From: Escherichia coli
GTDB lineage: Bacteria; Pseudomonadota; Gammaproteobacteria; Enterobacterales; Enterobacteriaceae
Assembly: GCF_024223415.1 (NCBI RefSeq)
Contig: NZ_CP100500.1
Strand: one strand, 5' to 3'
DNA: 64,000 bases
Shown in pieces: positions 20,465 to 38,692 of this stretch (position 1 is the first letter of the stretch; each line of letters opens with the position of its first letter). The position numbers were made by a program, and so were the translations under genes. The notes beneath the pieces were generated by a model that made no database searches, had not been told where the DNA came from, and saw only the letters and a program-made list of their open reading frames with translations.

Positions 20465-20494
20465 TTTTGATTCCTCTGTTAGCGAAAGACAAAA

Positions 20495-22015
20495 TCAGAA
20501 CAGACCAGCCGGTGATGTGTCATAACTGACCAGAATATTTTTAACCTGCTGATAGTGGCTGAGAGCCAGCTTATGTGTTTCCCTGCCAATACCAGAATTT
20601 TTATACCCTCCGAATGCGGCATGTGCCGGGTAATAATGGTAACAGTTTGTCCATATACGCCCGGCCTGGATCCCTTTTCCCATTCTCCATGCCCGGTTTA
20701 TATCTGTCGTCCACACACCCGCGCCAAGTCCGTATTCCGTATCGTTGGCGATACTGAGCGCCTCTTCTTCTGTCCTGAACGTGGTTATGCCAATGACAGG
20801 TCCGAAGATTTCCTCCCTGAAACATCGCATCTGATTATGGCCTTTGATCAGGGTCGGCTGAATGTAGAAGCCATTCTGTAAATGTCCCTCGTGGATGACA
20901 GGTGCACCACCGGTGAGTATTTCTCCGCCCTCATCCCTTGCTATGCGGATCCAGGAAAGGATCCTGTCATACTGTTCCCGGGAAGCCTGTGCACCTATCA
21001 TTGTGTCTGTATCAAACGGATCTCCACGGCGGATATTTTCGATTTTATGCAGAACCCGCTCCACAAAAGCCTGAAAGATCGTTTCCTGAACCAGGATACG
21101 TGAGGGACAGGTACAGACCTCCCCCTGATTAAAGAAGCCAAGTACAGCACCTTCAACCGCCTTTTCAAGGTAGCTGTCATCTCCGTTCATCACATCGTCA
21201 AAGAAAATATTGGGGGATTTACCGCCCAGTTCGACTGTACTGGGGATAATATTTTCAGCTGCGCAGGAGAGAATATGCCGCCCGACGGGCGTGGAGCCTG
21301 TGAATGCAATTTTATCGATACGACGGCTGCGGGCCAGAGCTTCACCAGCTTCCTGCCCGAAACCATGAACAACGTTAAGCACACCCGGCGGTAAAAGATC
21401 ACCGATTAATTCCAGCAGTACGCAAATACCCAGAGGGGTCTGTTCTGCGGGCTTCAGTACCACACAGTTTCCTGCCGCAAGTGCCGGTGCCAGTTTCCAG
21501 GCCGCCATCAGCAAAGGAAAATTCCATGGAATAATCTGACCGACCACTCCCACAGGTTCATAGATGTGCCATGCCATCATATCCCTGCCCACCTCTGCTG
21601 CACTGCCTTCCTGCGCCCGGAGACAGCCCGCAAAATAACGGAAGTGGTCAACTGCCAGTGGAATATCGGCCGCGAGTGTTTCGCGTACCGGCTTGCCGTT
21701 ATCCCAGGTTTCTGTCAGTGCCAGGATTTCTGTGTTCGCTTCAATACGATCGGCAATGGCAAGCAGTATATTCGCCCGCTCCGTGACCGGTGTTGCCCCC
21801 CATCGGGCTCTGGCCTCATGTGCCGCAGTGAGCGCGCTTTCAATATCCATCTCACCCGAACGTGGGAATTCAGCAATATTTTCTCCGGTAACAGGAGTGG
21901 TGCTGGTGAACCATCGCCCGCCGACAGGATCAACAAACTGACCGTTGATAAAGTTACCGTAGCGTTTTTTGAATGACACTTTTGAGCCGGGTAATCCCGG
22001 ATGTATGTATTTCAT
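20495..22015 (-). CDS. NAD-dependent aldehyde dehydrogenase (AldB-like)
   Basis: Collinear by eye with E. coli AldB; ELGGKSP and catalytic Cys context GEVCTCPSR. Confidence 0.9.
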   Translation of the reverse strand: MKYIHPGLPGSKVSFKKRYGNFINGQFVDPVGGRWFTSTTPVTGENIAEFPRSGEMDIESALTAAHEARARWGATPVTERANILLAIADRIEANTEILALTETWDNGKPVRETLAADIPLAVDHFRYFAGCLRAQEGSAAEVGRDMMAWHIYEPVGVVGQIIPWNFPLLMAAWKLAPALAAGNCVVLKPAEQTPLGICVLLELIGDLLPPGVLNVVHGFGQEAGEALARSRRIDKIAFTGSTPVGRHILSCAAENIIPSTVELGGKSPNIFFDDVMNGDDSYLEKAVEGAVLGFFNQGEVCTCPSRILVQETIFQAFVERVLHKIENIRRGDPFDTDTMIGAQASREQYDRILSWIRIARDEGGEILTGGAPVIHEGHLQNGFYIQPTLIKGHNQMRCFREEIFGPVIGITTFRTEEEALSIANDTEYGLGAGVWTTDINRAWRMGKGIQAGRIWTNCYHYYPAHAAFGGYKNSGIGRETHKLALSHYQQVKNILVSYDTSPAGLF

Positions 22016-22081
22016 GACATTCTCCCTGAGCGAAATTCAGTGTACGTTCATGCAGGAACAAAACTGTTGCAGATAACCTTA

Positions 22082-22098
22082 AGCAACACCCATGCCAC
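22082..22098 (-). promoter_or_regulatory. Candidate sigma-54 (-24/-12) promoter for the aldehyde/alcohol dehydrogenase operon
   Basis: Minus strand reads TGGCAT-N5-TTGCT with GG…GC spacing as in the TGGCAC-N5-TTGCW consensus, about 70 bp upstream of the ALDH start. Confidence 0.5.
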
Positions 22099-22256
22099 CA
22101 AGTTGTTACACACAGTTAACAACAACAAAAACAGCCTGTTAGCCCAAAAAACAGACAACCGAAAAAGAATCACCACAGGAAAATGTGAAGCAAATAAAAC
22201 ATTTTCGATACACAAATGATACAATCATGCAACACAACTGTTGCAAGGATTGAATT

Positions 22257-24017
22257 ATGTTACGTAAGAGATCTGCAACTGAGTATCAGAAAGAAAAAGC
22301 CACGCTTCCGGTACTCCTGAGTGCATCATGGCAACGATGTACCGGCTATCATCTCGAAAGAGACAGTGCGCCCTCAGTATGTGTTGAGCATGACCAGTTA
22401 CGGGATCTCCGGTCGCACAACGGCTGGTCAGATATCCTTAAACAACAGTTCCCTGAATCAGGCTCTGATTTTTTCAGTAAATCACTGGTACTGGTTATTG
22501 CTGATGCATCAGGCGTGATCCTTGACACCTGCGGTAACAGGAAATTTCTGAATAAAGCCGAAGGTTTTTTCCTTTCCCCCGGTCATATCTGGACCGAACA
22601 ACACTACGGCACAAATGCCATAGGTACAGCGCTGGCTGTACAGCAGGCATGTGAAGTGAGGGGGAGTGAACACTGGCTCAACAGAAATTCAGGACTCTGT
22701 TGTTCGGCATACCCGCTATTTTCACCTGAAGGTTATCTTGCCGGTATCCTGGATTTATCGTCACCGGCAGATTTACCATTCCGTGATGCACCGGTGATTA
22801 TCAGGCGGTTTGTTCAGCAAACCGAATATCTCTGGACAACAAAACGACTCAATGCAGAGAGATATCTGTTGCATCTCCGCCGGGAAAACAACGCAGACAT
22901 CAGTGACAGTAGTGAATTTTTACTGGTCATTGAAGGTGATGTGATTGTTGGTGCCAACAGGCTCGCTGTGAATGAATTTGGCCTTCTTCCACCTTATGAT
23001 TCCGTCACTCTGGATACTCTCTTTACCGGGGGTAACAGACAGTCTGATTTTCTGGAATCGTGCAGCGGACAACGTTATCTGCAGCGACGCACCCGCCCCC
23101 ACAGAGCTGCCGTGAATCTGTCACCCCGCCTCCGTTTTCCATCGCGGCGTGAAGCGGACAACGAAAAAAAGGAAAAAGCACAGCAGTTAATCAACCACGG
23201 AATATCGGTCTGTATTACAGGAGAAACCGGAACGGGGAAAGAATATCTGGCGCGGGAGCTTCACCGTAACAGTTGCCGGAAAAACGGCAACTTTGTTGCA
23301 ATTAACTGTGCTGCCCTGCCGGAACACCTGACAGAATCAGAGCTTTTCGGATACGCTCCGGGAGCATTTACCGGCGCGAATTCCAGAGGTTATCCCGGGA
23401 AAATCAGGGAAGCCAGTGGCGGGATCCTGTATCTTGATGAAATCGGCGATATGCCGGCAACACTTCAGACACGGTTATTACGTGTACTGCAGGACAAAAA
23501 AGTGATTCCTCTGGGTTCAAACACGCCTGTGGACGTTGACTTCGTACTGATATCAGCCACGCACCGTGATCTGGATAAGATGTGTGCAGAAGGGACTTTT
23601 CGGGATGATCTGTTATACCGAATACGGGAATTTCACCTGCATCTTCAGCCACTTCGGGAAAGAAGCGACCTGGGTAAACTGATAGTTAAACTCTGGGAAG
23701 AATCTGAACAGGAGATGAAAAAAACCGTCATGCTGGGCAGTGAAATTATTGAAGATTTAAAACGACATTCATGGCCGGGGAATGTACGTCAGTTGCTGAA
23801 TGTGCTCAGAGTTCTGATGGCGCTGGCACGACCTGGAGGAAGAATCACTCCAGGTGATCTCAGCGTAGTGTCTGAAGATATTTGTCATATCCATAATACC
23901 GTAAAGATAGTGACCGAAAGAAAAATAGTGGATGAGGCCGGAGGAAACATCAGCAGAGCGGCAAAAATGCTGGGTATTTCCCGAAGCACATTATACAGAC
24001 GACTGAAAAGTCTGTAA
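22257..24017 (+). CDS. Sigma-54-dependent transcriptional activator (AcoR-like)
   Basis: AAA+ Walker A GETGTGKE, GAFTGA signature, C-terminal HTH; divergent from the ALDH operon. Confidence 0.85.
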   Translation: MLRKRSATEYQKEKATLPVLLSASWQRCTGYHLERDSAPSVCVEHDQLRDLRSHNGWSDILKQQFPESGSDFFSKSLVLVIADASGVILDTCGNRKFLNKAEGFFLSPGHIWTEQHYGTNAIGTALAVQQACEVRGSEHWLNRNSGLCCSAYPLFSPEGYLAGILDLSSPADLPFRDAPVIIRRFVQQTEYLWTTKRLNAERYLLHLRRENNADISDSSEFLLVIEGDVIVGANRLAVNEFGLLPPYDSVTLDTLFTGGNRQSDFLESCSGQRYLQRRTRPHRAAVNLSPRLRFPSRREADNEKKEKAQQLINHGISVCITGETGTGKEYLARELHRNSCRKNGNFVAINCAALPEHLTESELFGYAPGAFTGANSRGYPGKIREASGGILYLDEIGDMPATLQTRLLRVLQDKKVIPLGSNTPVDVDFVLISATHRDLDKMCAEGTFRDDLLYRIREFHLHLQPLRERSDLGKLIVKLWEESEQEMKKTVMLGSEIIEDLKRHSWPGNVRQLLNVLRVLMALARPGGRITPGDLSVVSEDICHIHNTVKIVTERKIVDEAGGNISRAAKMLGISRSTLYRRLKSL

Positions 24018-24337
24018 GAACAACGTGCTGCCGGATACGTTATTTGCGGGAAATTCCTGTTCTGTAAAATATATCTCAGGTTGTTAAAACCCTGTCATTC
24101 TTCCATGTGAACAGTATGAGAAACATCACACGGGTATATTCACGGCCGGCACAACCACAGACATAAATGATATCCTGCGCATCATTTCCTGATGCTCTGA
24201 TACTGAGTTAACCACTTATTTACATCTGACGATAAATTGTTTATTCATTCTTCAGGGTAAATAAAGCCATAAGGAGTGTGATATTCACGATACGCTGAAA
24301 ATCGGTGAACTGAAAAATGGCAGTTACAGGGGGAAAT

Positions 24338-25822
24338 ATGAGTGATTTAATTAATTTTATTAATGGCATAATATGGAGCCCGGCACTGGTCTGGCTTTGT
24401 CTTGGAACAGGCCTCTGGTTTTCTGTCAGGGGACGCTTCCTGCAGCTCCGGCATATTAAAGAAATGCGCCGTCTGATATTCCGGAGTAAACAGAATGATG
24501 CGGGCGTTTCCTCTTTTCAGGCACTCACGATGACACTGGCCGGACGGGTCGGAACCGGTAATATTGCCGGTGTTGCCACGGCTATCACCTTTGGTGGTCC
24601 CGGTGCATTATTCTGGATGTGGGTGGTGGCATTTCTCGGCGCAAGCTCAGCCTTTGTCGAATCCACACTGGGGCAAATTTATAAGGAAAAAATTAACGGA
24701 GAATACCGGGGCGGACCCGCTTTTTACATAGAAAAAGGGCTTGGGTTACGATGGTACGCATGGCTGTTTGCTGTGGTGACGGTGCTTTCCTGTGGGCTGT
24801 TATTACCCGGTGTCCAGGCGAATTCGATAGGAAGCAGCCTGAACCTTGCATTCGGGATTAGCCCCAATGTGACGGCAGCATTTATCGCCCTCCTTCTTGG
24901 ATTCATCATCTTTGGTGGTGTAAAACGGATTGCTGTATTTACCAGTACTGTCGTGCCTTTCATGGCTCTCGGCTATATCATTGTCGCGTGTGTCATTGTT
25001 GCACTTCATATTGAAAAACTTCCCGGCGTGCTCCTCCTTGTCTGGCGCTCTGCTTTTGGACTGGATGCAGGTTTTGGTGCCATTGTCGGGCTTGCCATTT
25101 CATGGGGGGTCAAACGTGGTGTCTATTCCAATGAAGCCGCTCAGGGAACCGGACCTCACGCCTCTTCCGCTGCGGCAGTGACACATCCGGTTAAACAGGG
25201 ACTGGTGCAGGCCTTTTCTGTATATATCGACACGCTTTTTGTCTGTTCAGCTACGGGATTTATGCTTCTTGTTACCGGTCTGTATAATGTTCAGGGCCCC
25301 GGTGATGTTGCCTTATATACCGGTATCGCCGGTGTGGCAGCCGGGCCCGGCTATGTGCAGACAGCCATGGAAAGTATGATGCCGGGGTTTGGTAATTATT
25401 TTGTCGCAATCGCACTGTTCTTTTTCGCATTCACCACGATTGTTGCTTACTATTATATCGCAGAAACTAACATTGCCTGGATTTGCCGTAAAACAGCACG
25501 CCCCTGGCTTATGATTGTACTGAAGATTATGCTGATGGTTTCTGCGGTATACGGTACGGTCAAAACCGCAGATATGGCATGGGGACTGGGTGATATAGGG
25601 GTTGGTATGATGGCATGGCTTAATATCATCGCTATATTGCTTATGGGAGGGACTGCGTTTAATTGCCTCAGGGACTACGAAAAACAGATGTCACAGAATG
25701 CTGACCCGGTATTTGATCCCGAACGCCTCAGTCTGCAAAATGCTGATTACTGGACAGAACACCGTGATGAAGTTAAAAAATTGAGTGAGCCCGGGCCCAC
25801 ATTCCGGACAACGTCGTCGTAA
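24338..25822 (+). CDS. Alanine/glycine:cation symporter (AGCS family)
   Basis: Collinear with YaaJ-type carriers from MSDLINFINGIIW. Confidence 0.85.
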   Translation: MSDLINFINGIIWSPALVWLCLGTGLWFSVRGRFLQLRHIKEMRRLIFRSKQNDAGVSSFQALTMTLAGRVGTGNIAGVATAITFGGPGALFWMWVVAFLGASSAFVESTLGQIYKEKINGEYRGGPAFYIEKGLGLRWYAWLFAVVTVLSCGLLLPGVQANSIGSSLNLAFGISPNVTAAFIALLLGFIIFGGVKRIAVFTSTVVPFMALGYIIVACVIVALHIEKLPGVLLLVWRSAFGLDAGFGAIVGLAISWGVKRGVYSNEAAQGTGPHASSAAAVTHPVKQGLVQAFSVYIDTLFVCSATGFMLLVTGLYNVQGPGDVALYTGIAGVAAGPGYVQTAMESMMPGFGNYFVAIALFFFAFTTIVAYYYIAETNIAWICRKTARPWLMIVLKIMLMVSAVYGTVKTADMAWGLGDIGVGMMAWLNIIAILLMGGTAFNCLRDYEKQMSQNADPVFDPERLSLQNADYWTEHRDEVKKLSEPGPTFRTTSS

Positions 25823-27603: not shown

Positions 27604-29955
27604 TCAGAATAACCCCCCTTCACCATCAGCCACAATCCTGTATCCCATCGCCTTATAACCCCGCTGGCGTTTATCCCACATTCTGAGCAGCACAGGATAC
27701 GCTTTATCCACAAAATCAATGATCCTGACATCGCTTTTACCGGTATACTGTCTGTGCAGACGCCCTGCATACTGCTGTAACGTCCCTTTCCATGACACCG
27801 GCATCGCCAGAATCAGCGTATCCAGCGGTGGGTGGTCAAATCCCTCACCAATAAGTTTACCGGTTGACAACAGAATGCGGGGAGAATCCTGAGGAAGCGC
27901 ATTTAACTCAGAAATCAGCATTGTACGCTTTTTTTTCGATAACCGGCCATGAAGCACAAAGGGTGACAGGTTCAGTGAATGCATTACTGATGCTATATCA
28001 TCCAGATGCTCTTTTCGTTCAGTCAGTACCAGAACTTTACGTCCCTGCGCGAATGCCTTCATGGCTTCTTCAGCTATCGCCACAGTCCTGTCATGATCAA
28101 GCGCAATTTCTCTGAAAATATCCTGGATCCCCGCATCCGATGGTAAATGTCCGGATGTAAAACGGAAACGGAGCTGCACTTCCAGATTATGCGGACTTTC
28201 CTTCGGGCTGGCCGCTGTGTGACGAAGGGCACCACAGTACATAAAAATGATGGGATGCAGACCATCCCGTCGGACAGGCGTTGCCGTCAGTCCCAAAAGA
28301 TATCTGGCATTCGTTTCCTTCAGAACAGCAGAAAATGAAAACGCTCCAGCATGATGGCACTCATCAACTATGACTTGCCCGTAATTCCTGACCACAGGTG
28401 CAACTTTGCCATGCCTGAACAGAGACTGCACAACAGCAATATCAATATTGCCAGAGGGGTTATGTTTGCCCCCTCCGATAATACCAATACCGTCACTGGT
28501 CTGCAGAAATACCCCAAGCCGCTCCTGCCATTGCTTTAATAACTCAGTCCGGTGTACCAGTACAAGTGTATTAACTCTCCGTCGTGCAATCACAGCCGCG
28601 GCGGTAACCGTCTTACCAAAAGCCGTTGGCGCACAAAGTACACCAGAATCATAACGGAGCAATACCGAAACAGCCTCTTCCTGATCCGCTCTGAGGTTTC
28701 CCGTGAACACAGCATGACATTCTGTACCTGCAAATCGTTCATCGATGATTTCTGCAGCAATATTGTTGTCACTGAGGAAGGATAATGCGCTGTCCAGACA
28801 TCCACGGGGTAACGCAATGTGTTGCGGATAATTTTCCGCACAACCTGTAACCCGGGGTTTATTCCAGACAGACATTCTCATGGCCTGAGCCTTATAAAAC
28901 ACAGGATTAGGAAACGCAGCCAGTCGAATAAGCCGGTTGGCCAGCGGCTGAGGTAATTGCGCTTTTTCGAAATAGATCTGGTTTGCCAGCGTGATTCTCA
29001 GCGGCTCAGCAACAGAAACCGTCAGTTTGTTTTCTGATGATGTTTTCCACGGCGTGCTCAGGTCTTCGTCGGTAAAGTTCACATCCAGTGGATGAATACT
29101 TCCTGTAGCCCGTAATATTGTCGGTTCTATATCCTGCACATTCATCGGGATCACCGATGCCAGGAATGCCCACTGATCAGGATAAGGCTGAAAATTCATA
29201 TCAACAAAAACACTGCCTCCCGATTCACGCGGTCTTTTTTGCAGAGGTAACGCGATGAGATTGCCGAATCCCCCTTTTGGCATGGTATCCTGATTAGGAA
29301 ATAATCGGTCATAAGAACTCAACCGCAGTTGCCGGGAACGGCTACACGTATGGCTGATAACGGCTGTCCCCAGTCGGCGTGCATCACGGGCCGAAACCCG
29401 GGAAGCAAAAAATATCCAGACATGCGCCCCCTGACGTGAGCGGGATATTTCCAGCGCTGCGGGTATCCCCAGCTCATCACAGGATCGCATGAATGCGGAT
29501 GCATCCTTCTGCCATTCAGCATCATCAAAATCAACAGCCAGAAAATAACAGGAATCGTCTTCCAGCAGCGGATATACCCCGACTGTATGGTAGCCTGCGA
29601 GATGACGGTAAATGACAGGATCGGATACAGGTAGCAACTGACGGTGTGCGCAGTCACCGCATTTTATCCCGGGCTTACCGCAGATTCCCGGCTTCCATTC
29701 GTTAGCACAGGCCGGCGAATACCCTGATTTACCACTGACCTGACTTTCCCAGCGAAGGGCCCATACATCATCACGCCCACGAAACAACCGACGAAATAAT
29801 GAAACCTTCTGTTCAGCAGATAATGCGGAAACATGATGTACAGAACGCTGCGGTTTACGTCGCCATTCAATCCCGTGAGCTTCAAGTAATGAGGCCAGAC
29901 GGGCATTTTCTGCCCTCAGTGCAGCTAATTCGTCGTTATCAGATTGACACACCAT
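27604..29955 (-). CDS. Putative primase-polymerase / SF2 (DEAD/DEAH-type) helicase fusion protein
   Basis: C-terminal helicase motifs I AFGKT, II DECHH, III TAT, VI QYAGRLHR; N-terminal zinc ribbon CGKPGIKCGDCAHRQ and acidic DFDD motif. Confidence 0.75.
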   Translation of the reverse strand: MVCQSDNDELAALRAENARLASLLEAHGIEWRRKPQRSVHHVSALSAEQKVSLFRRLFRGRDDVWALRWESQVSGKSGYSPACANEWKPGICGKPGIKCGDCAHRQLLPVSDPVIYRHLAGYHTVGVYPLLEDDSCYFLAVDFDDAEWQKDASAFMRSCDELGIPAALEISRSRQGAHVWIFFASRVSARDARRLGTAVISHTCSRSRQLRLSSYDRLFPNQDTMPKGGFGNLIALPLQKRPRESGGSVFVDMNFQPYPDQWAFLASVIPMNVQDIEPTILRATGSIHPLDVNFTDEDLSTPWKTSSENKLTVSVAEPLRITLANQIYFEKAQLPQPLANRLIRLAAFPNPVFYKAQAMRMSVWNKPRVTGCAENYPQHIALPRGCLDSALSFLSDNNIAAEIIDERFAGTECHAVFTGNLRADQEEAVSVLLRYDSGVLCAPTAFGKTVTAAAVIARRRVNTLVLVHRTELLKQWQERLGVFLQTSDGIGIIGGGKHNPSGNIDIAVVQSLFRHGKVAPVVRNYGQVIVDECHHAGAFSFSAVLKETNARYLLGLTATPVRRDGLHPIIFMYCGALRHTAASPKESPHNLEVQLRFRFTSGHLPSDAGIQDIFREIALDHDRTVAIAEEAMKAFAQGRKVLVLTERKEHLDDIASVMHSLNLSPFVLHGRLSKKKRTMLISELNALPQDSPRILLSTGKLIGEGFDHPPLDTLILAMPVSWKGTLQQYAGRLHRQYTGKSDVRIIDFVDKAYPVLLRMWDKRQRGYKAMGYRIVADGEGGLF

Positions 29956-30115: not shown

Positions 30116-30679
30116 TCAGTTGTGTCGCGGTCGGCCGCGGTTACTTTTTTCAGGTAGTCTGCTACGCATCAGAATAATACCGTGTTCTTTCTGATCCTGT
30201 TTAGCCAGGTAGCTAAGGGCGTAACGTAAGTCATCTACCGCAGATTTATTACTATAGCGAATTACGTGATCAATACGCACCGGGTATTTATCTTTAGCCC
30301 GGCACAGGTGAAAATAACCATCCCCTTCCGTGATCCGCCTCCAGATATCTCCCAGCAGCCTGGATATCCGGTAAGATTTCTTGTGCCGTTGTCCATCCAG
30401 ATAGCCGATAAAATGAATATGAAGTCCCTTGTTTTGTGTATATTCCATAACCCAGTAATATCCTGCCAGAATCGTTTGGGTTTCGCTAAGTAAGCGCTGC
30501 ATCTCAATACACATACTGTGCTTACAGGAATGACCGAAACTGGGCGTGTCTTTCCTGTAGGCAAAATCAATTCTGAAAGGTAACAGTTTAGAAAAACGTT
30601 GAAACATACCTTCCATGTGTTTATTCACGTCTTTCAGAATCGTGAAATTCATTTCGTAATTGGGATTGGCATTGTACAT
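30116..30679 (-). CDS. HUH-motif protein, inovirus Gp2-like / YfjJ-YagK family
   Basis: GLHIHFIGYLD HUH-type motif; alignable with ORF 14155-14748. Confidence 0.65.
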   Translation of the reverse strand: MYNANPNYEMNFTILKDVNKHMEGMFQRFSKLLPFRIDFAYRKDTPSFGHSCKHSMCIEMQRLLSETQTILAGYYWVMEYTQNKGLHIHFIGYLDGQRHKKSYRISRLLGDIWRRITEGDGYFHLCRAKDKYPVRIDHVIRYSNKSAVDDLRYALSYLAKQDQKEHGIILMRSRLPEKSNRGRPRHN

Positions 30680-31628: not shown

Positions 31629-33062
31629 TCAGAGGTCAAAGTTAGGTGCGACATACCACGTTTTATCGTCCATAAGCTGTACAACTCTGTTTTGCTCATA
31701 CAGTAAATCCAGTAACCAGTTGAGTTTATCTTTTTTACGGAAACGATTCGGGCCACGCTGTAAAATGTCATTTTTTTTCATACAGGGAACCCCCTTCTCA
31801 ATGCAATAGCTTTTTATCCAGTTAAAAAGTTCAAGCTCCTCCGGAATGAGTCGCATAGTTACGGTCTGGGCAGAGTTTTCAAACGTTAACGGACTGGATA
31901 ACCGAATATACTCATTACCGTACCATATTGCTAATTCTCTCGCCATTTCAGCTGTGTAGGGGGAAATGTCACCTTCCTCACCGCTGACATGGTGAATAAG
32001 CCCAGCCAGTCTTGCCATATACTCTGCATTTTTAGCAGCATATTCTCTGAAGTCTCTTAAAGGCCCCAGAACCGCCATCTTCGATTCCACATCGTTGTAA
32101 TAGTCCGTCCAGATTCTGGCTGCCTGAGGAGAAAAGTGAAGGCAACGTCGCTCTCCCCTCATAGCCAGGCTTTCATCAATAAGTTCATTGATCCTCTTGT
32201 CAAATAACTCCTGATACTGTGATGAATAATTATCTCCGGTTATTATCCTTGTCCCCTGCGTTGATGTTGGTTGACACATCAAAAACCGTGCATGATGTCC
32301 TGATGTCTTCACCAGTTCTTTTTTTCGTGTACAAAAACCTTTGTGGTAAACATCAGGCTGAATCATCACCGATATCGTCAGTCTTGGGTCCTTCAAAAAA
32401 ATCCCGGGAGATGATTTCCTGTCGATGAAAAGGGAACTACCATCCCATAAAGAGTTAAGTATTCCCAGTTTGCTCATTGCCCGGCTGTCAAAAATCACCC
32501 CGCCCTCACTGGATACAAGAGCAAAAGAGCGATTGCTGTCGGAATAATATTTAAACATTCCCTCTGTCGTCGTATCATTAAAAATTGTCCGATTTATCTG
32601 CGGTGGAACAGGACAACTATTCAGATGCATTCTGAGCTCTGATTCTGTTGCTTCATACTCTTTACCGGCACGAATCTCTTTATGAAGTTTTGACTCCAGT
32701 GCCTTTTGTTTTTGCTCCCATATTTCCTTTTCTGCACTGTAATTCTCAACCAGTTTCGCATATTCTTCCGCAAGAGTTTCATCCCTGAGATAAAATGCTT
32801 TCATAAAAACTTTATCCACGGTCGTTTTCCTTTCGCCGGAATCAGCCAGAATCATAGCGTAAAGATTAGAGGGGCCACGTAAATTACCAGGTCTGCACAC
32901 ATCAATCTGATTCTGACAGGCAACTGACACCGCTGTTAATGCTGCTGTTGCAACCAGAGCCCCGGGCGCCTGTGTATTTTGCTGAGTTTCAATTATTGCA
33001 TTTCTCACCAGAGATGTTAATGCATTTATCGGAAAAGGGGCTTCCTGTTCAAGTAAGGACAT
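31629..33062 (-). CDS. DUF3987-type protein (YfjI-like)
   Basis: Position and composition match CP4-57 YfjI; start set at internal ATG 33062 (GAGG RBS); hairpin 31576-31606 downstream. Confidence 0.7.
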   Translation of the reverse strand: MSLLEQEAPFPINALTSLVRNAIIETQQNTQAPGALVATAALTAVSVACQNQIDVCRPGNLRGPSNLYAMILADSGERKTTVDKVFMKAFYLRDETLAEEYAKLVENYSAEKEIWEQKQKALESKLHKEIRAGKEYEATESELRMHLNSCPVPPQINRTIFNDTTTEGMFKYYSDSNRSFALVSSEGGVIFDSRAMSKLGILNSLWDGSSLFIDRKSSPGIFLKDPRLTISVMIQPDVYHKGFCTRKKELVKTSGHHARFLMCQPTSTQGTRIITGDNYSSQYQELFDKRINELIDESLAMRGERRCLHFSPQAARIWTDYYNDVESKMAVLGPLRDFREYAAKNAEYMARLAGLIHHVSGEEGDISPYTAEMARELAIWYGNEYIRLSSPLTFENSAQTVTMRLIPEELELFNWIKSYCIEKGVPCMKKNDILQRGPNRFRKKDKLNWLLDLLYEQNRVVQLMDDKTWYVAPNFDL

Positions 33063-33321
33063 AAATACCTCAATTTTAGTTAATAAATCAGTAAAGTAGC
33101 AGATATTCCCGCTATAATAGCCAAAATAGCTGCTATGCATAGCCGATATGTTCTGAAAAATACAGTAATCGGGCATACCTGATGTTGAACAAAACGATAA
33201 GGTTGATTCAATTCAGCCTGTATTATTAGCTACGTAACATCATTCACATTGCTCACTCCTGACATCTTCTGATGATTATTTCAACGACGCCTTATTCATG
33301 GTCGTTTTCCTTTTTCATGAA

Positions 33322-33543
33322 TCAAAAAACAACCATAGTGTAAATATTCATGGGTTCACGAAAATTATCTAATCTGCACACATTAGTCAGATCCTGACGG
33401 GAAATTGACATATCTGTTAATACTGGCATTGCCATCAGAGTCAGAGGTACTTGTTTATTATATTGAGCTTTAATCATTGCCTTTCCCATCATTAATGATC
33501 GCGCATATACTGAATACGGCGTATCCGGTTTTATGTAAGACAT
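33322..33543 (-). pseudogene. Truncated tandem duplicate of the YfjI-like N-terminus (73 aa)
   Basis: DNA and protein alignable with the first ~90 codons of 31629-33062 (…VCR..N.R.P.N.Y.M…), then frame break and stop. Confidence 0.5.
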
Positions 33544-33718
33544 AAATGCTTCCTTTGTCGTAATGCGTGTCGGTTATAGCAGCAATTACCGCTACAATAG
33601 CGACAATAGCTGCTCTTTCAACAATGAATGCTGGAAATTCTGTTTATCAATTAAACTTCTGGCTAAATTATTCTTATGCTTCTTTTTCCTCCTGAGGTGA
33701 TCACGTGATGACAAAAAC

Positions 33719-34015
33719 TTATCTGCTCATGGTCATATCTGAAGAAAGCGTATGTCGCACTTCGTCATTAACACCTTTTACTGCTGATCTGGCTGGTACA
33801 GTATGTAAAGTAAGCCATTCGTCAATAGCTGATGAACGCCAGCCCACAGAACCACTACCAAGACGTACCGGCCTTGGGAAGGTTGCATCGTAATATTTCG
33901 ATAACGGATTCATTTTTTCGTAAATTGTCGAACGAGATATACCTAACAATTGGCTCAGTTCAGGCATCCGTAAGATGCGTGAAGGAGTCCAGCAGTGTCC
34001 GGATTGATCTGGCAT
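33719..34015 (-). CDS. alpA: AlpA-family phage regulatory protein
   Basis: …ILRMPELSQLLGISRSTIYEKMNPLSKYYDATFPRPVRLGSGSVGWRSSAIDEWL… matches the AlpA fold; start at internal ATG. Confidence 0.7.
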   Translation of the reverse strand: MPDQSGHCWTPSRILRMPELSQLLGISRSTIYEKMNPLSKYYDATFPRPVRLGSGSVGWRSSAIDEWLTLHTVPARSAVKGVNDEVRHTLSSDMTMSR

Positions 34016-34223
34016 TTTATCCCCCTTAGTGTGGTGAACTGTCGTTACAGTTTGTATTCCTCGGGTAAATTTTTCTGCGTAAAAAAATGGGTTGAGCAAA
34101 AAGACAATAAACAACTAAAAATCAATATGATAGGAAACAACAGCATTATTGTTATTTTACTTTTCCCTTATCGCTGTCGATTCTCATTATCATTCATGGC
34201 AAAAAAACAGTAAAAGAGGCCCT

Positions 34224-34971
34224 AGTAATGACTCCGGTCAGTAGTACATGTGCTTCGATAAATGAACCAATGGCTTTTCGTTAATTTCCACGGAGCGTGA
34301 AAAGCAAATCGTTTTCAGGGATGGGAGTTTGATGTGAGTACGAAGTATCAGATTGTTGCGCTCAATGCGCCGGGTAAATATCCTGCCGACAGGATGCTTA
34401 TCCTGTGGTACTTCTCTGGTATAACTGCACCAGTTTTCACTGGTTATCATGCCTGAGGAGAATGGCTTCAGAAGTTCCGGCAACTCACTACATGTTTCAT
34501 CAGTACGAGGACCAAAAGTGTAAGCCCGCACACCGCCAGATTTGGTGTTATACGCATACCAGAGCCAGTGCTGACGAGCTTTGTTTCCGACAAAGCTCCA
34601 TTGTTCATCAAGTTCGCATATAAGCGCCACATCGGCACTGGCGACTGGAGATGTGGTTACTTTGCATGGTGAGCGTTTTTTAAAGTGCGAATGACTGTGT
34701 TGATACCCACCTTCAGTGTTCTGGAGGTATCGCGAACCCCGGTTCCGTTATGAGCCATTTCAACGATTTGCTCTTTAACACTTGGTTTTCGGGCTTCGCA
34801 GGTGTAATTCAGTTGAAATACACGTTTGCAGGAGCGGCACTGGAAACAGTGCTGTGACCGTGACGGTACACTTTATCGGAATTACAGCGGGGACAATGTA
34901 CGGTAACTGTTGCCATATGGACTCCGGATACCAACAGAATACCCCATTAATCTGCCCCCGGAAGTCATCCC
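34224..34971 (-). mobile_element. IS1-family insertion sequence, divergent copy with frameshifted insA
   Basis: Terminus AGTAATGACTCC at 34224-34235; InsA-like start at 34916; A6C frameshift motif before insB'. Confidence 0.7.
34238..34630 (-). CDS. insB: IS1 transposase InsB' segment
   Basis: ICELDEQWSFVGNKARQHWLWYAYN…RTHIKLPSLKTICFSRSVEINEK matches IS1 InsB. Confidence 0.75.
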   Translation of the reverse strand: MALICELDEQWSFVGNKARQHWLWYAYNTKSGGVRAYTFGPRTDETCSELPELLKPFSSGMITSENWCSYTREVPQDKHPVGRIFTRRIERNNLILRTHIKLPSLKTICFSRSVEINEKPLVHLSKHMYY

Positions 34972-35111
34972 GGTGCCTTCTGACATAATCTGTTAATACA
35001 TGAATTATTGCCCTGTTCAGAAAATATTAATTAAAAAATGAAAACCAGTTAACAGAAAAGCCACATGACATAATGTTAAAATTTTATATCGTGCAATAAA
35101 AGGAGAATGTT

Positions 35112-36938
35112 ATGTACAATTTTATCACTATAATGTATGATGTCTTTTCATGTTTTGGTGTTCTGGCTAAAAACCAGAATATCCGTGACATCCGAAATAT
35201 TAAAAACTTTTCCTCACATCAACATTCACTGGCCGACATGTTTGATGAATTAACATACATTATTGACAAAGAACAGGTACTGAGCACAGAACAACGAAAA
35301 GTTATATTCAGGAGATATGAAGATCTGTATGTTAAACTCATGCACTATTCTGTTTTTACAGACAAAACACATCAAATAATAAAACAAAAATATTTTAATG
35401 ATGTTGTTCCAATGATTCTCGCGCTCGACATCAGGAACACATATCGCCCGGATAATGAGATGGCATTTTACTATCATATCCATTCTTTTCTCACTCAGAT
35501 ACCGGATAATGAGGATGATATATATCATGCTGTAAGGACATATATGAGAAATTATGTTAAGTTATGTTTATCCGGATACACACCAACGAATGCGCATTTC
35601 AAAAATATCTTTGATGGAGTATATGAATTCATTCGTAATATTCGCAAAAACAGTACACCCGGAAAAACAAAACTTATTGCAGCTATCAACATATGCAAAG
35701 AAGCCTGTAAATATCTGCTTTGTTTAAGTGATAAAGACAAGGAAATAATATTTTCCGACTTAGATAAAATTCAGGTTGCATGTTATTCTCTCACTATATT
35801 ACTGGCTTTCGAAAGACGAACATCATTAACAAGTAACCTGGCAACTTTATATAAAATGCTGATAAACGAAAGAGAAGTTTCAGAATATGAATGTCAGCAA
35901 TTATATTTAATCAACCCAATAGATGTAATGAATATACTGAACAAATACATATATTACTTCCCTGGTGAGAATTCACCTCTTTATACACTGAAAATTGACA
36001 GTGCATTATCGTGGGATGCCATTGATGCAATACGAGACTATAGTATTTCTGATATTTATCTTTATCCTGAACAAAAAACAATAAATTGTATCGTTGAGAT
36101 TGAAAACATTGTCTTTGGCGGTTACATTTATACATTGAGCGACGGCGTCACATTACAAAATATGGAAAACACTTTAAAAGATTCCTCATGTCATTATGTA
36201 TTAAATGGCTATACAGAATTTGTTAACTGTTTAAGACAACTTACTTCAGGAAAGACTGAAAGTGTTCAGCGTACCATTAATAAACTGGAGTACGAAAAAT
36301 TACCTTTTGGATTTATCATTGCCGCGTTTGCTATATTAAAAATAGCATTTAAGATAAAGTTCAGTAAAAATCATGTAAATACCAGGGCATTATTAAATGA
36401 CATCAGTTATTTTATGACTTATCAGGGCGAGTCCATTAATCTTATTTCACTGGATCATGAATATCCAGAGTTCCGTCTTCAAAATGACACAAATACATAT
36501 TTATTGGGAAGGATGATATTTCTATATAACTCAATGATCTATAAATTCAGAAACTGCCAGGAACATGAAACCAATAACATTAACTCAGTTATGATAAATA
36601 ACCTATTACAGGAAGTTGATATAGCCCTTGGTAAAATAAATGACATTATAGACAGCAGAAACATATCAGTCCCCCATGAACTGGCAAATATTCTTATCCA
36701 CGAAAAAATACTTACAACACGTGAAAAAAAAGGAAACCTGATAAGCCTGTTTGATGGATTCACTTTATTCCATTGTGTTGGAATGATAACCTTTCTTATC
36801 CATTACCTCAGAACTCCTGAAGAAAAAGTAGAAAATGTATTTATGTTATATGGTGCAGATAAAAACAATAAACTACGCAGAAGACTGATTTATGATGCAC
36901 TAGAAATAATTCAGTCTCAGCAGGAGATGAAACCTTAA
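35112..36938 (+). CDS. Hypothetical protein, 608 aa, AT-rich orphan (no recognisable domain)
   Basis: AAGGAG six nt upstream of the ATG; composition far more AT-rich than flanks; hairpin 36962-36986 downstream. Confidence 0.8.
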   Translation: MYNFITIMYDVFSCFGVLAKNQNIRDIRNIKNFSSHQHSLADMFDELTYIIDKEQVLSTEQRKVIFRRYEDLYVKLMHYSVFTDKTHQIIKQKYFNDVVPMILALDIRNTYRPDNEMAFYYHIHSFLTQIPDNEDDIYHAVRTYMRNYVKLCLSGYTPTNAHFKNIFDGVYEFIRNIRKNSTPGKTKLIAAINICKEACKYLLCLSDKDKEIIFSDLDKIQVACYSLTILLAFERRTSLTSNLATLYKMLINEREVSEYECQQLYLINPIDVMNILNKYIYYFPGENSPLYTLKIDSALSWDAIDAIRDYSISDIYLYPEQKTINCIVEIENIVFGGYIYTLSDGVTLQNMENTLKDSSCHYVLNGYTEFVNCLRQLTSGKTESVQRTINKLEYEKLPFGFIIAAFAILKIAFKIKFSKNHVNTRALLNDISYFMTYQGESINLISLDHEYPEFRLQNDTNTYLLGRMIFLYNSMIYKFRNCQEHETNNINSVMINNLLQEVDIALGKINDIIDSRNISVPHELANILIHEKILTTREKKGNLISLFDGFTLFHCVGMITFLIHYLRTPEEKVENVFMLYGADKNNKLRRRLIYDALEIIQSQQEMKP

Positions 36939-36961: not shown

Positions 36962-36986
36962 CAGGGGATTATTGAGTAATCCCCTG
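36962..36986. terminator. Hairpin CAGGGGATTA-N5-TAATCCCCTG between the convergent 608-aa ORF and int
   Basis: Perfect 10-bp inverted repeat; T-run on the minus-strand side. Confidence 0.5.
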
Positions 36987-37122: not shown

Positions 37123-38325
37123 TTATTTATTCATAATCTGAGACATCACATAATCCGCCCATGCCTGCATCATCGGTACACGCTGCTCCAGTAGATCAGT
37201 ACGATGATATGCCGCCTCAACCTTATTTTTCAGCGTATGAGCGAGCGCCCTTTCAGCCAGATCCCGCGAATACCCCTGCTCACTACACCAGTCCCTGAAT
37301 GTTGAACGAAAACCATGTGCCGTGGCGACTCGCCCCGGAATATCACTGACGGCTTTCTTTTTACGCAGAAAACTGGTCAACACCATATCTGAAAGGATCT
37401 GCTGCTTTCTGGGTGAAGGAAACACCAGTTCATCATGCAGACCACGTATATTTTCCAGAATGTAAATAGCCTGTCGGGATAAAGGAACACGATGCTGTAC
37501 CCTGGCTTTCATTCTTTCTGCTGGTATCGTCCATATCTGCTTATGAAAATCAATTTCAGTCCAGCGCATTCCCCTGGCTTCACCCGAGCGGGTTGCTGTA
37601 AGTATCACCATTAATAACAATGCGCGGGTAACATTATAGGGTTCATCGGTATACACACTGGTCGCCACAAAAAGCGGTAACTGCCTCCATGGCATTGCGG
37701 GTTGGTGTTCATCACGTCCTCTTGTCTGCTGGGGAAGCAAATGATCAACCACATCCACAGGATTTGCCACACAAAAACCATGTGCCCATCCCCACTGCAT
37801 AACAACATGAATGCGCTGTTTAACCCGGCTTGCCGTTTCTGACAAAGTTAACCAGACTGGCCGCAGTGTTTCTGCCACGTCCGCAGCCGTAATCGAATCC
37901 AGCGTTTTCGCTCCCAGTTGAGGAAAGGCGTAATTCTCAAGCGTCGATAACCACTGCCGGACATGCTTTGGATTTTCCCATCCAGGAGACAGTTCTGCAT
38001 GTACACGTCTGGCTGCATCGGCAAATGTTGGGATAACAACTTTTTCAGCCTCAGCCTTTTTAATCTCCAGAGGATCATCACCAGCAGCAAGTTGCTCTCG
38101 CATTATCCGGGCAGTACGTGCAGCTTCAGCAATGCTGATCTCAGGGTAAGTTCCCAATCCAGCATTACGCCTTTTTTGTGTCACCGGACTTACATAACGA
38201 AAAACCCATTTACCCCGACCCTTTACTGAAGAAGGATGAAGGGTCAGTCCTGTAATTCCCCCATGGGGCAATGGTTTGTCATCAGGTTTGATATGCCTTG
38301 CTTTCGTATCCGTCAATACTGCCAT
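37123..38325 (-). CDS. int: Tyrosine-type site-specific integrase (P4/CP4-57 IntA-like)
   Basis: IntA-like N-terminus and C-terminal catalytic region (…HGFRSTFRDW…, …LAHTLKNKVEAAYHR…). Confidence 0.9.
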   Translation of the reverse strand: MAVLTDTKARHIKPDDKPLPHGGITGLTLHPSSVKGRGKWVFRYVSPVTQKRRNAGLGTYPEISIAEAARTARIMREQLAAGDDPLEIKKAEAEKVVIPTFADAARRVHAELSPGWENPKHVRQWLSTLENYAFPQLGAKTLDSITAADVAETLRPVWLTLSETASRVKQRIHVVMQWGWAHGFCVANPVDVVDHLLPQQTRGRDEHQPAMPWRQLPLFVATSVYTDEPYNVTRALLLMVILTATRSGEARGMRWTEIDFHKQIWTIPAERMKARVQHRVPLSRQAIYILENIRGLHDELVFPSPRKQQILSDMVLTSFLRKKKAVSDIPGRVATAHGFRSTFRDWCSEQGYSRDLAERALAHTLKNKVEAAYHRTDLLEQRVPMMQAWADYVMSQIMNK

Positions 38326-38485: not shown

Positions 38486-38499
38486 CCCCCTCACCGCCA
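38486..38499 (+). other. 3' remnant of tRNA-Ser (serW-type att core)
   Basis: CCCCCTCACCGCCA matches the last 14 nt of E. coli tRNA-Ser(GGA); the remainder of the tRNA is absent upstream. Confidence 0.5.
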
Positions 38500-38543: not shown

Positions 38544-38692
38544 CATTTTATCTGCCTGTACGGCAGTGAACATGGTGGGCGGGTGGAGTATGTTACCAGT
38601 GAATTTCTAAGCTGCCTGTACGGCAGTGAACGTTTGCTGCAACCGCTAGCCAAGACGGTAGGTTTTTCTAAGCTGCCTGTACGGCAGTGAAC
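38544..38692 (-). CRISPR. Orphan type I-F CRISPR mini-array (3 repeats, 2 spacers, no cas genes in window)
   Basis: Two exact copies of TTTCTAAGCTGCCTGTACGGCAGTGAAC (38604-38631, 38665-38692) plus a degenerate copy ending at 38571; spacers of 32-33 bp. Confidence 0.8.

Follow-up and report, generated by a model that had tools for sequence, protein, structure and literature searches.

What is a strongly AT-rich gene doing between the integrase gene and the regulator gene alpA of an Escherichia coli island? The gene, called ORF608 here, is intact, starts with ATG and encodes 608 amino acids (positions 35112–36938, plus strand). It lies within a 64,000-nucleotide stretch of contig NZ_CP100500.1, the whole of which is referred to as the window. 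A sequence-only reading of this DNA had placed ORF608 in a variable cargo slot and had proposed a single-gene defence, abortive-infection or effector protein of unknown family. Is the gene exchangeable cargo or part of the island's own machinery, and what may its product do? Gene signals, island structure, homologues and a predicted protein model were analysed with these questions in view.

The ORF608 Gene and Its Signals

ORF608 had been described as far more AT-rich than its surroundings, and the computed values confirm this: its GC content is 0.322 (GC3 0.297), against 0.492 for the window, 0.484 for int and 0.527 for clpA. The strong ribosome-binding site is also present, as a Shine-Dalgarno sequence AAGGAG (35100–35105, plus strand) that direct sequence reading places 6 nt upstream of the ATG. 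The segment 34979–35099 (plus strand) is the upstream region left after an IS1 insertion and is putatively regulatory. It contains a predicted promoter, CTGACA-17-AATTAT at 34980–35008, which may drive ORF608. The sequence AAAAAATGAAAACCAG (35033–35048), also upstream of the gene, is common to the conserved alpA–ORF intergenic DNA of distant relatives. The ORF608 protein is produced in O157:H7 in ordinary culture, without induction.

At the other end, ORF608 and int are convergent, and 184 bp separate the two stop codons. An 11-bp hairpin is found between the genes at 36962–36986, assigned to neither strand (−17.3 kcal/mol, z −3.06). The sequence-only reading had taken this hairpin as the gene's own terminator. 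The hairpin exists, yet the plus strand lacks a T-run after it and the terminator scan gave no call there. The coding sequence includes a homopolymer of eight A residues (36724–36731, plus strand), and frameshifts at this A8 or at a nearby C5 run shorten some database alleles to 541–546 amino acids.

The Island Around ORF608

The integrase convergent with ORF608 was correctly recognised as P4-type. It is a tyrosine integrase of the P4/SRL-PAI type, encoded at 37123–38325 on the minus strand (NF007246, E 1e-54; PMC3064760). The 14-bp island direct repeat TGGCGGTGAGGGGG, which corresponds to the 3' end of the tRNA-Ser gene serW/serX, lies at 38486–38499 on the minus strand (PMC3064760). This repeat is the int-proximal boundary of the island and adjoins clpA. 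Searches with ARAGORN and Rfam found no tRNA gene anywhere in the window, where the 14-bp 3' repeat is the only trace of serW.

On its upstream side, ORF608 is separated from alpA by a degenerate IS1 (about 34222–34978, minus strand), in agreement with the position between int and IS1/alpA that had been noted. The identical insertion between alpA and ORF608 is found in UTI89 and O157:H7. The alpA/rox-type gene (33719–34015, minus strand) encodes an excisionase-regulator with 54% identity to CP4-57 AlpA. The YfjI/DUF3987 gene (31629–33176, minus strand) encodes the putative primase-helicase of the module, and a 73-aa DUF3987-like fragment (33322–33543) is separate from it. A YagK/YfjJ protein of the 'inovirus Gp2-type', a putative rolling-circle initiator, is encoded at 30116–30679 on the minus strand. 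The PrimPol-helicase encoded at 27604–29955 (minus strand) has 87% identity to the O157:H7 protein at the IEE position (IS-excision enhancer, ECs1305), and its gene forms the end of a block of about 11 kb that is kept at about 90% nucleotide identity in other E. coli. The order of int by its repeat, the ORF, alpA/rox, yfjI, yagK and iee is the same as in O157:H7 (PMC3064760; bioRxiv 10.1101/2023.06.07.543989), and the island in the window has the backbone of the SpLE1 / OI-43/48 / SRL-PAI-type serW/serX islands.

A Widespread Family Linked to alpA

ORF608 had been called an orphan. It remains unannotated but is not rare, being carried by 19% of complete E. coli genomes (1030 genomes, alike to the 1025 with the module) and belonging to a family found across the Gammaproteobacteria. 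Its carriers include standard laboratory pathogens, namely EDL933, Sakai-like strains and UTI89. Distant homologues with 20–38% identity are found in Enterobacterales, Aeromonas and Shewanella, and hhalign shows the Aeromonas/Shewanella clade to be homologous to ORF608 over its full length (E 1.7e-40). The members are roughly 580–710 aa long, all-alpha-helical and unannotated. Among 50,697 phage genomes no family member was found, and plasmids held effectively none. A profile search with a family alignment in a set of 5.8 billion proteins reached no further than a single-sequence search, and a search with the relative P0053 returned Aeromonas and Shewanella hypothetical proteins only, with no HTH fusions. 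The apparent 865-aa fusion P0048 was rejected as a gene-call artefact, since a piece of an IS481 transposase makes up its N-terminal extension. Literature searches found no paper on the accession WP_000282217, nothing useful on yfjH and none on the 'TOTE conflict system'.

Does the gene move independently of its neighbours? Nineteen loci outside E. coli were inspected, and in every one the homologue lies directly beside alpA and is divergently transcribed, wherever int lies. The hosts among these loci are Kluyvera, Xenorhabdus, Edwardsiella, Morganella, Providencia, Enterobacter, Aeromonas and Shewanella. The loci were sampled mostly by starting from the ORF; in a sample that started from the module, the family was present in four of the five informative loci. 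In most relatives int sits at the far side of the module, away from the homologue, and in the Aeromonas loci backbone genes are found on both sides of the ORF. When pairwise identities are compared, the ORF is correlated with AlpA (rho 0.81), DUF3987 (0.74) and YagK (0.75), but not with Int (0.07). The variable cargo slot of the sequence-only reading is not supported by these data, in which a fixed neighbour of alpA diverges with the module and not with Int. None of the variable cargo falls within the four-gene block formed by the ORF and alpA-DUF3987-YagK. Between int and yagK this cargo consists of CHAT, DUF4062+Abi_alpha+Abi_C, H-NS or a 157-aa gene, and downstream of the ORF of GmrSD+R-M, Hachiman+Lamassu or an SMC-like gene.

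In relatives without IS1, such as the islands of Edwardsiella hoshinae (L019) and Enterobacter cloacae (L022), the ORF has its own promoter-like region and stands back-to-back with alpA across about 100 bp of intergenic DNA. DNA conservation is 0.69 in this region, 0.73 in the alpA coding sequence and 0.57 at the 5' end of the ORF, and the intergenic promoter-like elements have an overlapping −10 region. Relative to DUF3987, alpA and the gene in the slot beside it have been exchanged together. In EA7, DUF3987 is about 86% identical at the nucleotide level, yet alpA is different and the slot holds a 545-aa gene whose product proved unrelated to ORF608 on comparison. The DUF3987 of the window is CP4-57-like (43%), and its AlpA is nearer to the AlpA of elements with ORF homologues. 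In CP4-57 of E. coli K-12, the uncharacterised yfjH occupies the same slot in the same orientation (intA → ← yfjH, then alpA → yfjI → yfjJ), and a YfjH-like gene occupies it in one IMG/VR module. YfjH differs in having 318 aa and in being no more AT-rich than its own module, and it was rejected as a homologue (hhalign probability 0.05%). Since other module lineages carry unrelated genes there, the slot is not universally this family's.

ORF608 is very probably an island backbone gene, the fourth and fastest-evolving member of the AlpA-DUF3987-YagK module, and not exchangeable cargo. With the same high confidence, this assignment is extended to integrative islands of the CP4-57 / SpLE1 / OI-43/48 / SRL-PAI type. 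Base composition speaks against it: in nine of nine loci the GC content of the ORF is 4.5–9 points below that of the module with which it co-diverges, which is unusual for a long-resident core gene.

A Fast-Evolving Protein Under Purifying Selection

The pace of ORF evolution is evident from pairs of related loci. Between L002 and L004 the backbone stands at 0.79–0.84 and the ORF at 0.37; between L005 and L019 the values are 0.94–0.99 and 0.83. Variation is concentrated in a hypervariable middle (residues ~241–380), and the N- and C-terminal parts are conserved. Overall dN/dS is 0.18–0.27, indicating purifying selection, and the local maxima of about 0.6–1.1 involve few substitutions. Positive selection was considered and found to be unsupported, as no region-wide signal is seen. 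The first 150 codons show very high dS between L005 and L019, which points to a recombination mosaic rather than positive selection.

The Predicted Protein

Searches of Pfam, NCBIfam and PDB sequences with the ORF608 protein gave no significant match, and the best match in PHROGs was insignificant (E 0.16). When relatives were included, the best matches to Pfam, NCBIfam and PHROG profiles had E values of 0.007–0.16, all to unrelated models; Pfam searches over 17 aligned family members and a profile search of the PDB returned nothing significant. The sequence-only reading had recognised no Walker motif, nuclease, HTH or protease signature, and ORF608 indeed has no recognisable catalytic, Walker, HTH or protease domain. 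No HTH was detected in any member, and no nucleic-acid-binding or NTPase signature was detected. PADLOC-DB v2.0.0 returned 0 families at E ≤ 1 for ORF608, and for ten diverse relatives it again returned 0, here at E ≤ 0.1.

AlphaFold confidently predicts an all-alpha protein (pLDDT 82.9, pTM 0.82). Foldseek searches with this model retrieved no characterised fold: nothing was found at E ≤ 0.001 among the BFVD viral structures, and the AFDB50 matches are uncharacterised relatives only. One of these matches, UniProt A0A3L0W2L1 from E. coli, has 930 aa and bears the name 'HTH domain-containing' (TM 0.66 to the model). A fusion of ORF608 to AlpA through a (GGGGS)6 linker, modelled by AlphaFold with a locus-paired alignment, gave a pTM of 0.69 in this crude test without PAE. 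This is about the value for undocked AlpA, so the model lends no support to an ORF608-AlpA complex.

Comparison With Known Systems

The closest known systems include genes of similar position in satellites and phages. In the PICMI satellites, 13 unrelated families of unknown genes lie between int and alpA; these genes are constitutively expressed, alpA-prim forms the inducible regulon, and the slot gene iolg is required for excision (PMC10803314). ORF608 resembles the PICMI genes iolg and icg in being an uncharacterised gene that an element of the int-alpA-DUF3987 (primase) type carries between its integrase gene and alpA. The arrangements differ in that iolg is on the same strand as int and overlaps it by 1–13 nt, whereas ORF608 is convergent with int across its 184-bp gap. 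In most relatives the homologue of ORF608, beside alpA, is not close to int. PICMI elements measure about 6 kb and are found in Vibrionaceae, and kinship in sequence between their genes and ORF608 would not be expected.

A second parallel is provided by classical switches. SaPI Stl and P2 C (opposed to Cox) are repressors encoded divergently from an excision/replication operon. By analogy, ORF608 has a comparable place: it is transcribed away from an RDF/regulator gene, behind which come genes for a helicase and a rolling-circle initiator. It is also the gene that differs most between elements that are alike in other respects. The divergent gene across a short intergenic region, as in CI/Stl-type systems, is found in the relatives and is interrupted by IS1 in the window. 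In contrast to Stl and P2 C, no HTH or other DNA-binding domain was detected in ORF608, including the N-terminal HTH of the CI/Stl type, and the protein is two to three times larger. Its intergenic DNA is conserved and not co-varying. TPR/RRNPP regulators such as NprR and ElrR combine TPR and HTH, and ORF608 does not show a clear structural superposition with them.

Proposed Role and Alternatives

What might a backbone gene of this kind do? The best single explanation is that it acts in control of the island life cycle, a reading whose chances fall somewhat short of even. As to mechanism, the protein is tentatively viewed as a non-enzymatic sensor or regulatory scaffold for a life-cycle switch. 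It would hold back AlpA itself or the alpA-helicase-Rep operon until triggered, whether by a helper phage, by a conjugative element or by stress. The variable middle would recognise the trigger, and the function shared by the family would reside in the conserved N- and C-terminal parts. Alternatively, the protein may set element-specific immunity or exclusion. The fullest version is doubtful: a new kind of control protein for islands, with an all-helical fold not seen before and without a DNA-binding domain, that senses a helper (phage or conjugative element) through its middle, gates AlpA-driven excision and replication of CP4-57/SpLE1-type islands, and might at once interfere with the invader. 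Given that an HTH was detected in no member, a classical repressor role is without direct support, and conserved intergenic DNA that does not co-vary with a fast-evolving protein argues against the protein as its sequence-specific binder. In E. coli, IS1 has parted the gene from alpA and purifying selection nevertheless persists, so that a host-beneficial role such as defence fits at least equally well.

Defence is a serious competing reading and the strongest of them, though still somewhat unlikely. ORF608 would be a new-family single-gene anti-phage protein, acting by abortive infection or interference from a fixed spot at the edge of a defence hotspot. In this reading its variable helical middle would sense a phage protein and activation would kill or arrest the cell, perhaps via the conserved hydrophobic helix 397–417. 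The expectation that related elements carry defence genes close by was borne out, as known systems adjoin the homologue in several relatives: L002 has two GmrSD and type I R-M, L004 has R-M and an LmuB-like gene, and L027 has Hachiman and Lamassu. Novel defences that consist of a single gene are known from satellites, for example UP2 in PICMI (PMC10803314). Like such P4/PICI/PICMI genes, ORF608 belongs to a mobile element, is AT-rich even against its own module, evolves fast and lies near known defence systems. Its hypervariable centre, intragenic recombination and missing phage homologues also favour defence, as does its intact state in about 19% of E. coli though IS1 uncouples it from alpA. 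Against defence, neither ORF608 nor the ten relatives match a PADLOC v2 family, an effector-type domain is lacking, and its fixed position and strict backbone linkage are unlike satellite defence cargo. In 19 of 19 loci the gene is found in the alpA context, whereas typical defence cargo hops between contexts, and its divergence follows the backbone with no region-wide positive selection. The DefensePredictor supplements searched contained no accession or peptide match for the protein, a weak negative. A replication or mobilisation accessory is improbable, be it a helicase loader, an origin/oriT recognition protein or a coupling factor that partners the DUF3987 helicase and the Gp2-like initiator. 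A helical make-up and restriction to one lineage are common among helicase loaders and relaxosome accessory proteins. Such a role would suit the strict linkage and co-divergence with DUF3987 and YagK, and the conserved neighbouring non-coding DNA could house a cis site. It sits poorly with a gene that points away from the replication operon, is expressed uninduced and has no nucleic-acid-binding or NTPase signature, and the pairing in EA7 indicates that DUF3987 has no need of the ORF608 protein.

The two hydrophobic stretches that had been noticed were confirmed, with Kyte-Doolittle 19-residue means of 2.04 at 397–415 and 1.61 at 545–563. Could ORF608 be a membrane or host-adaptation (virulence) protein, carried apart from the island's own biology? 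One strongly and one more weakly hydrophobic window, the automatic name 'membrane protein' on some UniProt fragments of the family, and its presence in UPEC and EHEC pathogenicity islands could be read in this way. This is nonetheless very improbable. Within the family no block is better conserved than the hydrophobic helix, which is modelled with a pLDDT of about 95 within the compact structure, as would fit a buried core helix. Signal peptide and multi-pass pattern are both absent, and the family is found in non-pathogens too, always by alpA.

Significance

Among islands with a P4-type integrase and the alpA-DUF3987-YagK module, those of EHEC bring tellurite resistance, urease, adhesins and IEE, those of UPEC fimbriae and those of Shigella resistance genes; elsewhere, such islands bear many anti-phage systems. 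The ORF608 family, attached to alpA, fast-evolving, expressed at rest and of no known fold, is a candidate island switch or a candidate new defence family. For the mining of defence genes from hotspots, the lesson is that an integrase-adjacent gene is not necessarily cargo. If ORF608 does encode a control protein of the trigger-sensing kind, it would be the missing trigger sensor for pathogenicity and defence islands of a type that is very common in enterobacteria.

Genomic context of ORF608 and its homologues

The decisive evidence on ORF608, the 608-codon gene at 35112-36938, is its genomic context. The sequence-only reading had placed it in a variable cargo slot beside the integrase. In a sample of 19 non-E. 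coli loci encoding a homologue, drawn from metagenomes, named genomes (Kluyvera, Xenorhabdus, Edwardsiella, Morganella, Providencia, Enterobacter, Aeromonas, and Shewanella), and IMG/VR, the homologue directly adjoined alpA and was transcribed away from it in every case, with DUF3987 and YagK_YfjJ_C genes downstream of alpA (19/19). The gene is therefore a fixed divergent neighbor of alpA rather than an occupant of a variable slot. Most of these loci carry the integrase at the far side of the alpA-DUF3987-YagK module, in the order int (rightward), variable genes, yagK, DUF3987, and alpA (all leftward), then the ORF (rightward) and more variable genes. The four-gene block is inverted relative to int in the window and in CP4-57, a cryptic prophage of E. 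coli K-12, and this inversion is the sole reason that ORF608 is integrase-proximal in the window.

The variable genes between int and yagK include CHAT, DUF4062+Abi_alpha+Abi_C (locus L012, 3856-7066), H-NS paralogues, or a 157-aa gene. Those 3' of the ORF comprise two GmrSD genes with a type I R-M system (locus L002, 7184-16588), R-M with an SMC/LmuB-like ATPase, or Hachiman (HamA/HamB) with Lamassu (LmuB; locus L027, 10042-15924). The two variable regions flanking the block look like two defense hotspots of the island family. In Aeromonas, more backbone (DUF932, YqaJ, Gp3-like, RadC, and CbeA) comes immediately after the ORF. The island-encoded H-NS paralogues beside yagK, both full-length and N-terminal-only (L013, 5363-6404; L023, 5038-5439; L028, 4907-6004), may have a bearing on the unusual AT richness of the ORF.

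The ORF608 family is not the universal occupant of the slot beside alpA. CP4-57 carries the unrelated YfjH there, and E. coli EA7 combines a DUF3987 gene of ~86% nucleotide identity with a different alpA and an unrelated slot gene (545 aa). A small, YagK-seeded, module-first sample of IMG/VR contained the ORF608 family in 4 of 5 informative modules and a YfjH-like gene in the fifth. The window DUF3987 is 43% identical to CP4-57 YfjI vs. 22-26% to the DUF3987 of ORF-bearing elements, while in the same comparison the window AlpA is 48-66% identical to AlpA of ORF-bearing elements vs. 43% to that of CP4-57. These affinities and the EA7 swap indicate that alpA and its divergent neighbor tend to travel together, by inheritance or by exchange.

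The gene and its control region in the window

Several features described from sequence were recovered. ORF608 runs without interruption on the + strand and is far poorer in GC (0.322; GC3 0.297) than the window (0.492), the adjacent integrase (0.484), and clpA (0.527). A strong RBS (AAGGAG) lies 6 nt 5' of its ATG, and two hydrophobic stretches reach Kyte-Doolittle 19-residue means of 2.04 and 1.61. The gene converges with a P4-type tyrosine integrase (37123-38325, - strand), and on its other side lie a degenerate IS1 (~34222-34978) and then an alpA-type gene (33719-34015, - strand). The claim of its own terminator was half right: the 11-bp hairpin is real (36962-36986, -17.3 kcal/mol, z = -3.06), but it lacks a + strand T-run and the terminator scan makes no call. 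Low GC was found family-wide. All 13 homologues fall below the remainder of their own locus, and in 9/9 loci the homologue is 4.5-9 points under its own alpA-DUF3987-yagK module, which is not so for YfjH and the EA7 gene.

The alpA|ORF spacer spans ~100 bp in Enterobacterales relatives. Its mean pairwise identity of 0.69 falls between that of the alpA coding DNA (0.73) and that of the ORF's first 300 nt (0.57). It holds a promoter-like TCGAAC-17-GATACT with a TGn extension, whose -10 overlaps a reverse-strand -10, and both start codons are preceded by similar CCAACnGGAG leaders. Judged from these motifs, the spacer would act as a promoter region for both genes. The window keeps the ORF-proximal part (34979-35111), including the promoter-like site (34980-35008). 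The IS1-family copy, its transposase frameshifted, breaks up this compact divergent control region of other genera and displaces alpA by ~1 kb. The same insertion in UTI89 and O157:H7 indicates that it is old. A gap of ~540 bp (33177-33718) separates alpA from the 515-aa DUF3987 ORF and holds a 73-aa ORF (33322-33543) that RefSeq labels a DUF3987 fragment in related strains. Since DUF3987 starts ~25 nt past alpA in other genera, its 5' end in E. coli looks rearranged or partly duplicated.

Occurrence in E. coli and the island

ORF608 had been taken for an orphan, yet it is not rare. A copy at ~93.7% nucleotide identity was found in 1036 of 5426 complete E. coli genomes, and the exact protein is already recorded in the species. 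The gene is full-length in 1030 genomes and the alpA+DUF3987 segment in 1025. UTI89, O157:H7, and the window share one local order: int, ORF608, IS1 remnant, alpA-like HTH, YfjI/DUF3987, Gp2-type YagK, and PrimPol-helicase. A dead ORF was ruled out by selection and proteomics; dN/dS is 0.18 (window vs. UTI89) and 0.27 (L005 vs. L019, the latter an Edwardsiella hoshinae island), similar to the neighboring DUF3987 gene. The coding sequence contains homopolymer runs, A8 at 36724-36731 and C5 at about 36670-36674. A minority of database alleles, some from complete chromosomes, are frameshifted at these runs to 541-546 aa and lose the conserved C-terminal block, which could be real pseudogenisation, phase variation, or assembly error.

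The window block from ~27.6 kb to 38.9 kb keeps ~90% nucleotide identity across many E. coli. The conserved block ends at the 14-bp repeat TGGCGGTGAGGGGG (38486-38499), which is known from published work to flank O-islands 43/48 as well as the SRL island of Shigella at serW/serX; these islands have excision frequencies of about 1e-3 to 1e-4 per cell (PMC3064760). ARAGORN and Rfam detected no tRNA genes in the whole window (1-64000), and next to int there is only the 14-bp 3' end of tRNA-Ser (serW; 38486-38499). Both the intact serW and the opposite end of the island must thus lie past the left window edge, in an island of >38 kb. A 782-aa PrimPol + SF2-helicase protein (27604-29955, - strand) shares 87% identity with the O157:H7 protein encoded at the position of iee (ECs1305), the IS-excision enhancer gene. 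RefSeq names it 'TOTE conflict system archaeo-eukaryotic primase domain-containing protein'; a literature search found no paper describing 'TOTE'. Left of the block, 19430-25822 encodes an AdhP-like alcohol dehydrogenase, an ExaC-like aldehyde dehydrogenase, a sigma-54 activator, and an AgcS-type amino-acid carrier, which are either island cargo or chromosome. Two perfect 28-nt type I-F CRISPR repeats, 61 bp apart (38545-38692; Rfam CRISPR-DR4, 50.1 bits each), and a third, degenerate one at about 38546 sit between clpA and the end of the island and resemble the small orphan array of the clpA-infA region.

Protein family and divergence

The protein had no matches in Pfam, NCBIfam, PADLOC, or PDB sequences and no significant PHROG matches. 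An exhaustive phmmer search of 1.84 billion cluster representatives returned 34 matches at E<=0.001, ~15 of them full-length (568-663 aa, 27-34% identity). All relatives found by Foldseek in AFDB50 are uncharacterized; the nearer ones come from Leclercia, Pantoea, Hafnia, Shigella dysenteriae, Salmonella, Providencia, Edwardsiella, Proteus, Citrobacter, and Klebsiella, and the remoter ones (12-19% identity) from Aeromonas, Burkholderia, and Pseudomonas. An Aeromonas/Shewanella clade (677-710 aa) shares full-length homology (hhalign probability 100%, E 1.7e-40, 547 columns). No homologue was found among 50,697 phage genomes, and only four plasmid-labeled records carry the gene, all from E. coli and with copies nearly identical to the chromosomal one. 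The AlphaFold2 model, built from an alignment of 17 sequences, is confident and all-alpha with 31 helices (mean pLDDT 82.9, pTM 0.82); it had no Foldseek matches among viral structures, and the family has no structural relatives among solved structures. Conservation is high at residues 1-140 and 221-240, gives way to hypervariability and indels at 241-380, and returns in blocks at 381-560, the top block being a hydrophobic helix (LPxGY...LALKIKL, 397-420). Invariant positions are mainly hydrophobic or Tyr/Asn/Lys, with no conspicuous catalytic motif among them.

Over 78 locus pairs, ORF identity correlated with that of AlpA (Spearman 0.81), DUF3987 (0.74), and YagK (0.75), and not with Int (0.07). 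L005 and the Enterobacter cloacae island L022 illustrate this (ORF 0.91, AlpA 1.00, DUF3987 0.95, YagK 0.86, Int 0.35). The ORF is the fastest-evolving gene of the block, as in L002 vs. L004 (AlpA 0.79, DUF3987 0.81, YagK 0.84, ORF 0.37) and L005 vs. L019 (neighbors 0.94-0.99, ORF 0.83). A sliding-window analysis of the latter pair gave dS 1.1-1.6 in the first ~150 codons (L005 10001-10450 vs. L019 8007-8456) vs. 0.03-0.38 in the rest of the ORF and in the neighbors. This jump points to an intragenic recombination mosaic, which accounts for part of the fast divergence; no general positive selection was found.

Possible functions

ORF608 is a real, expressed, conserved protein of an uncharacterized fold class, and part of the alpA/DUF3987/YagK module of a widespread integrative-island family rather than exchangeable cargo. 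Its most likely function, put forward tentatively, is that of a sensor or regulator in island activation, or of element-specific immunity or exclusion. This is suggested by its repressor/immunity-like position opposite an excisionase-regulator/helicase/rolling-circle-initiator operon, by its expression at rest, by its divergence, the highest in the block, and its variable center, and by its lack of a catalytic domain. Against this, no DNA-binding domain was detected, the spacer DNA does not co-vary with the protein, a crude AlphaFold test of an ORF608-AlpA fusion (pTM 0.69) gave no evidence of docking, and selection continues in E. coli despite the uncoupling from alpA by IS1. The nearest published parallel is in the PICMI satellites of Vibrionaceae, where uncharacterized genes occupy the int-alpA interval and one of them is required for excision (PMC10803314).

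The defense gene proposed by the sequence-only reading is a strong rival, if a somewhat doubtful one. A rapidly evolving, AT-rich gene at the edge of a defense hotspot and absent from phages would fit it, but PADLOC has no match and, unlike typical defense cargo, the gene never occurs in another context. A replication or mobilisation accessory protein is unlikely, and a membrane or virulence protein very improbable.

The ORF608 family is unannotated, and its strict partnership with alpA seems undescribed in the literature searched. Genes of its kind, with life-cycle or accessory roles and located where int meets alpA in an integrative island or satellite, are already known. ORF608 nonetheless deserves attention, since it occurs commonly in model pathogens and lends itself to direct tests.
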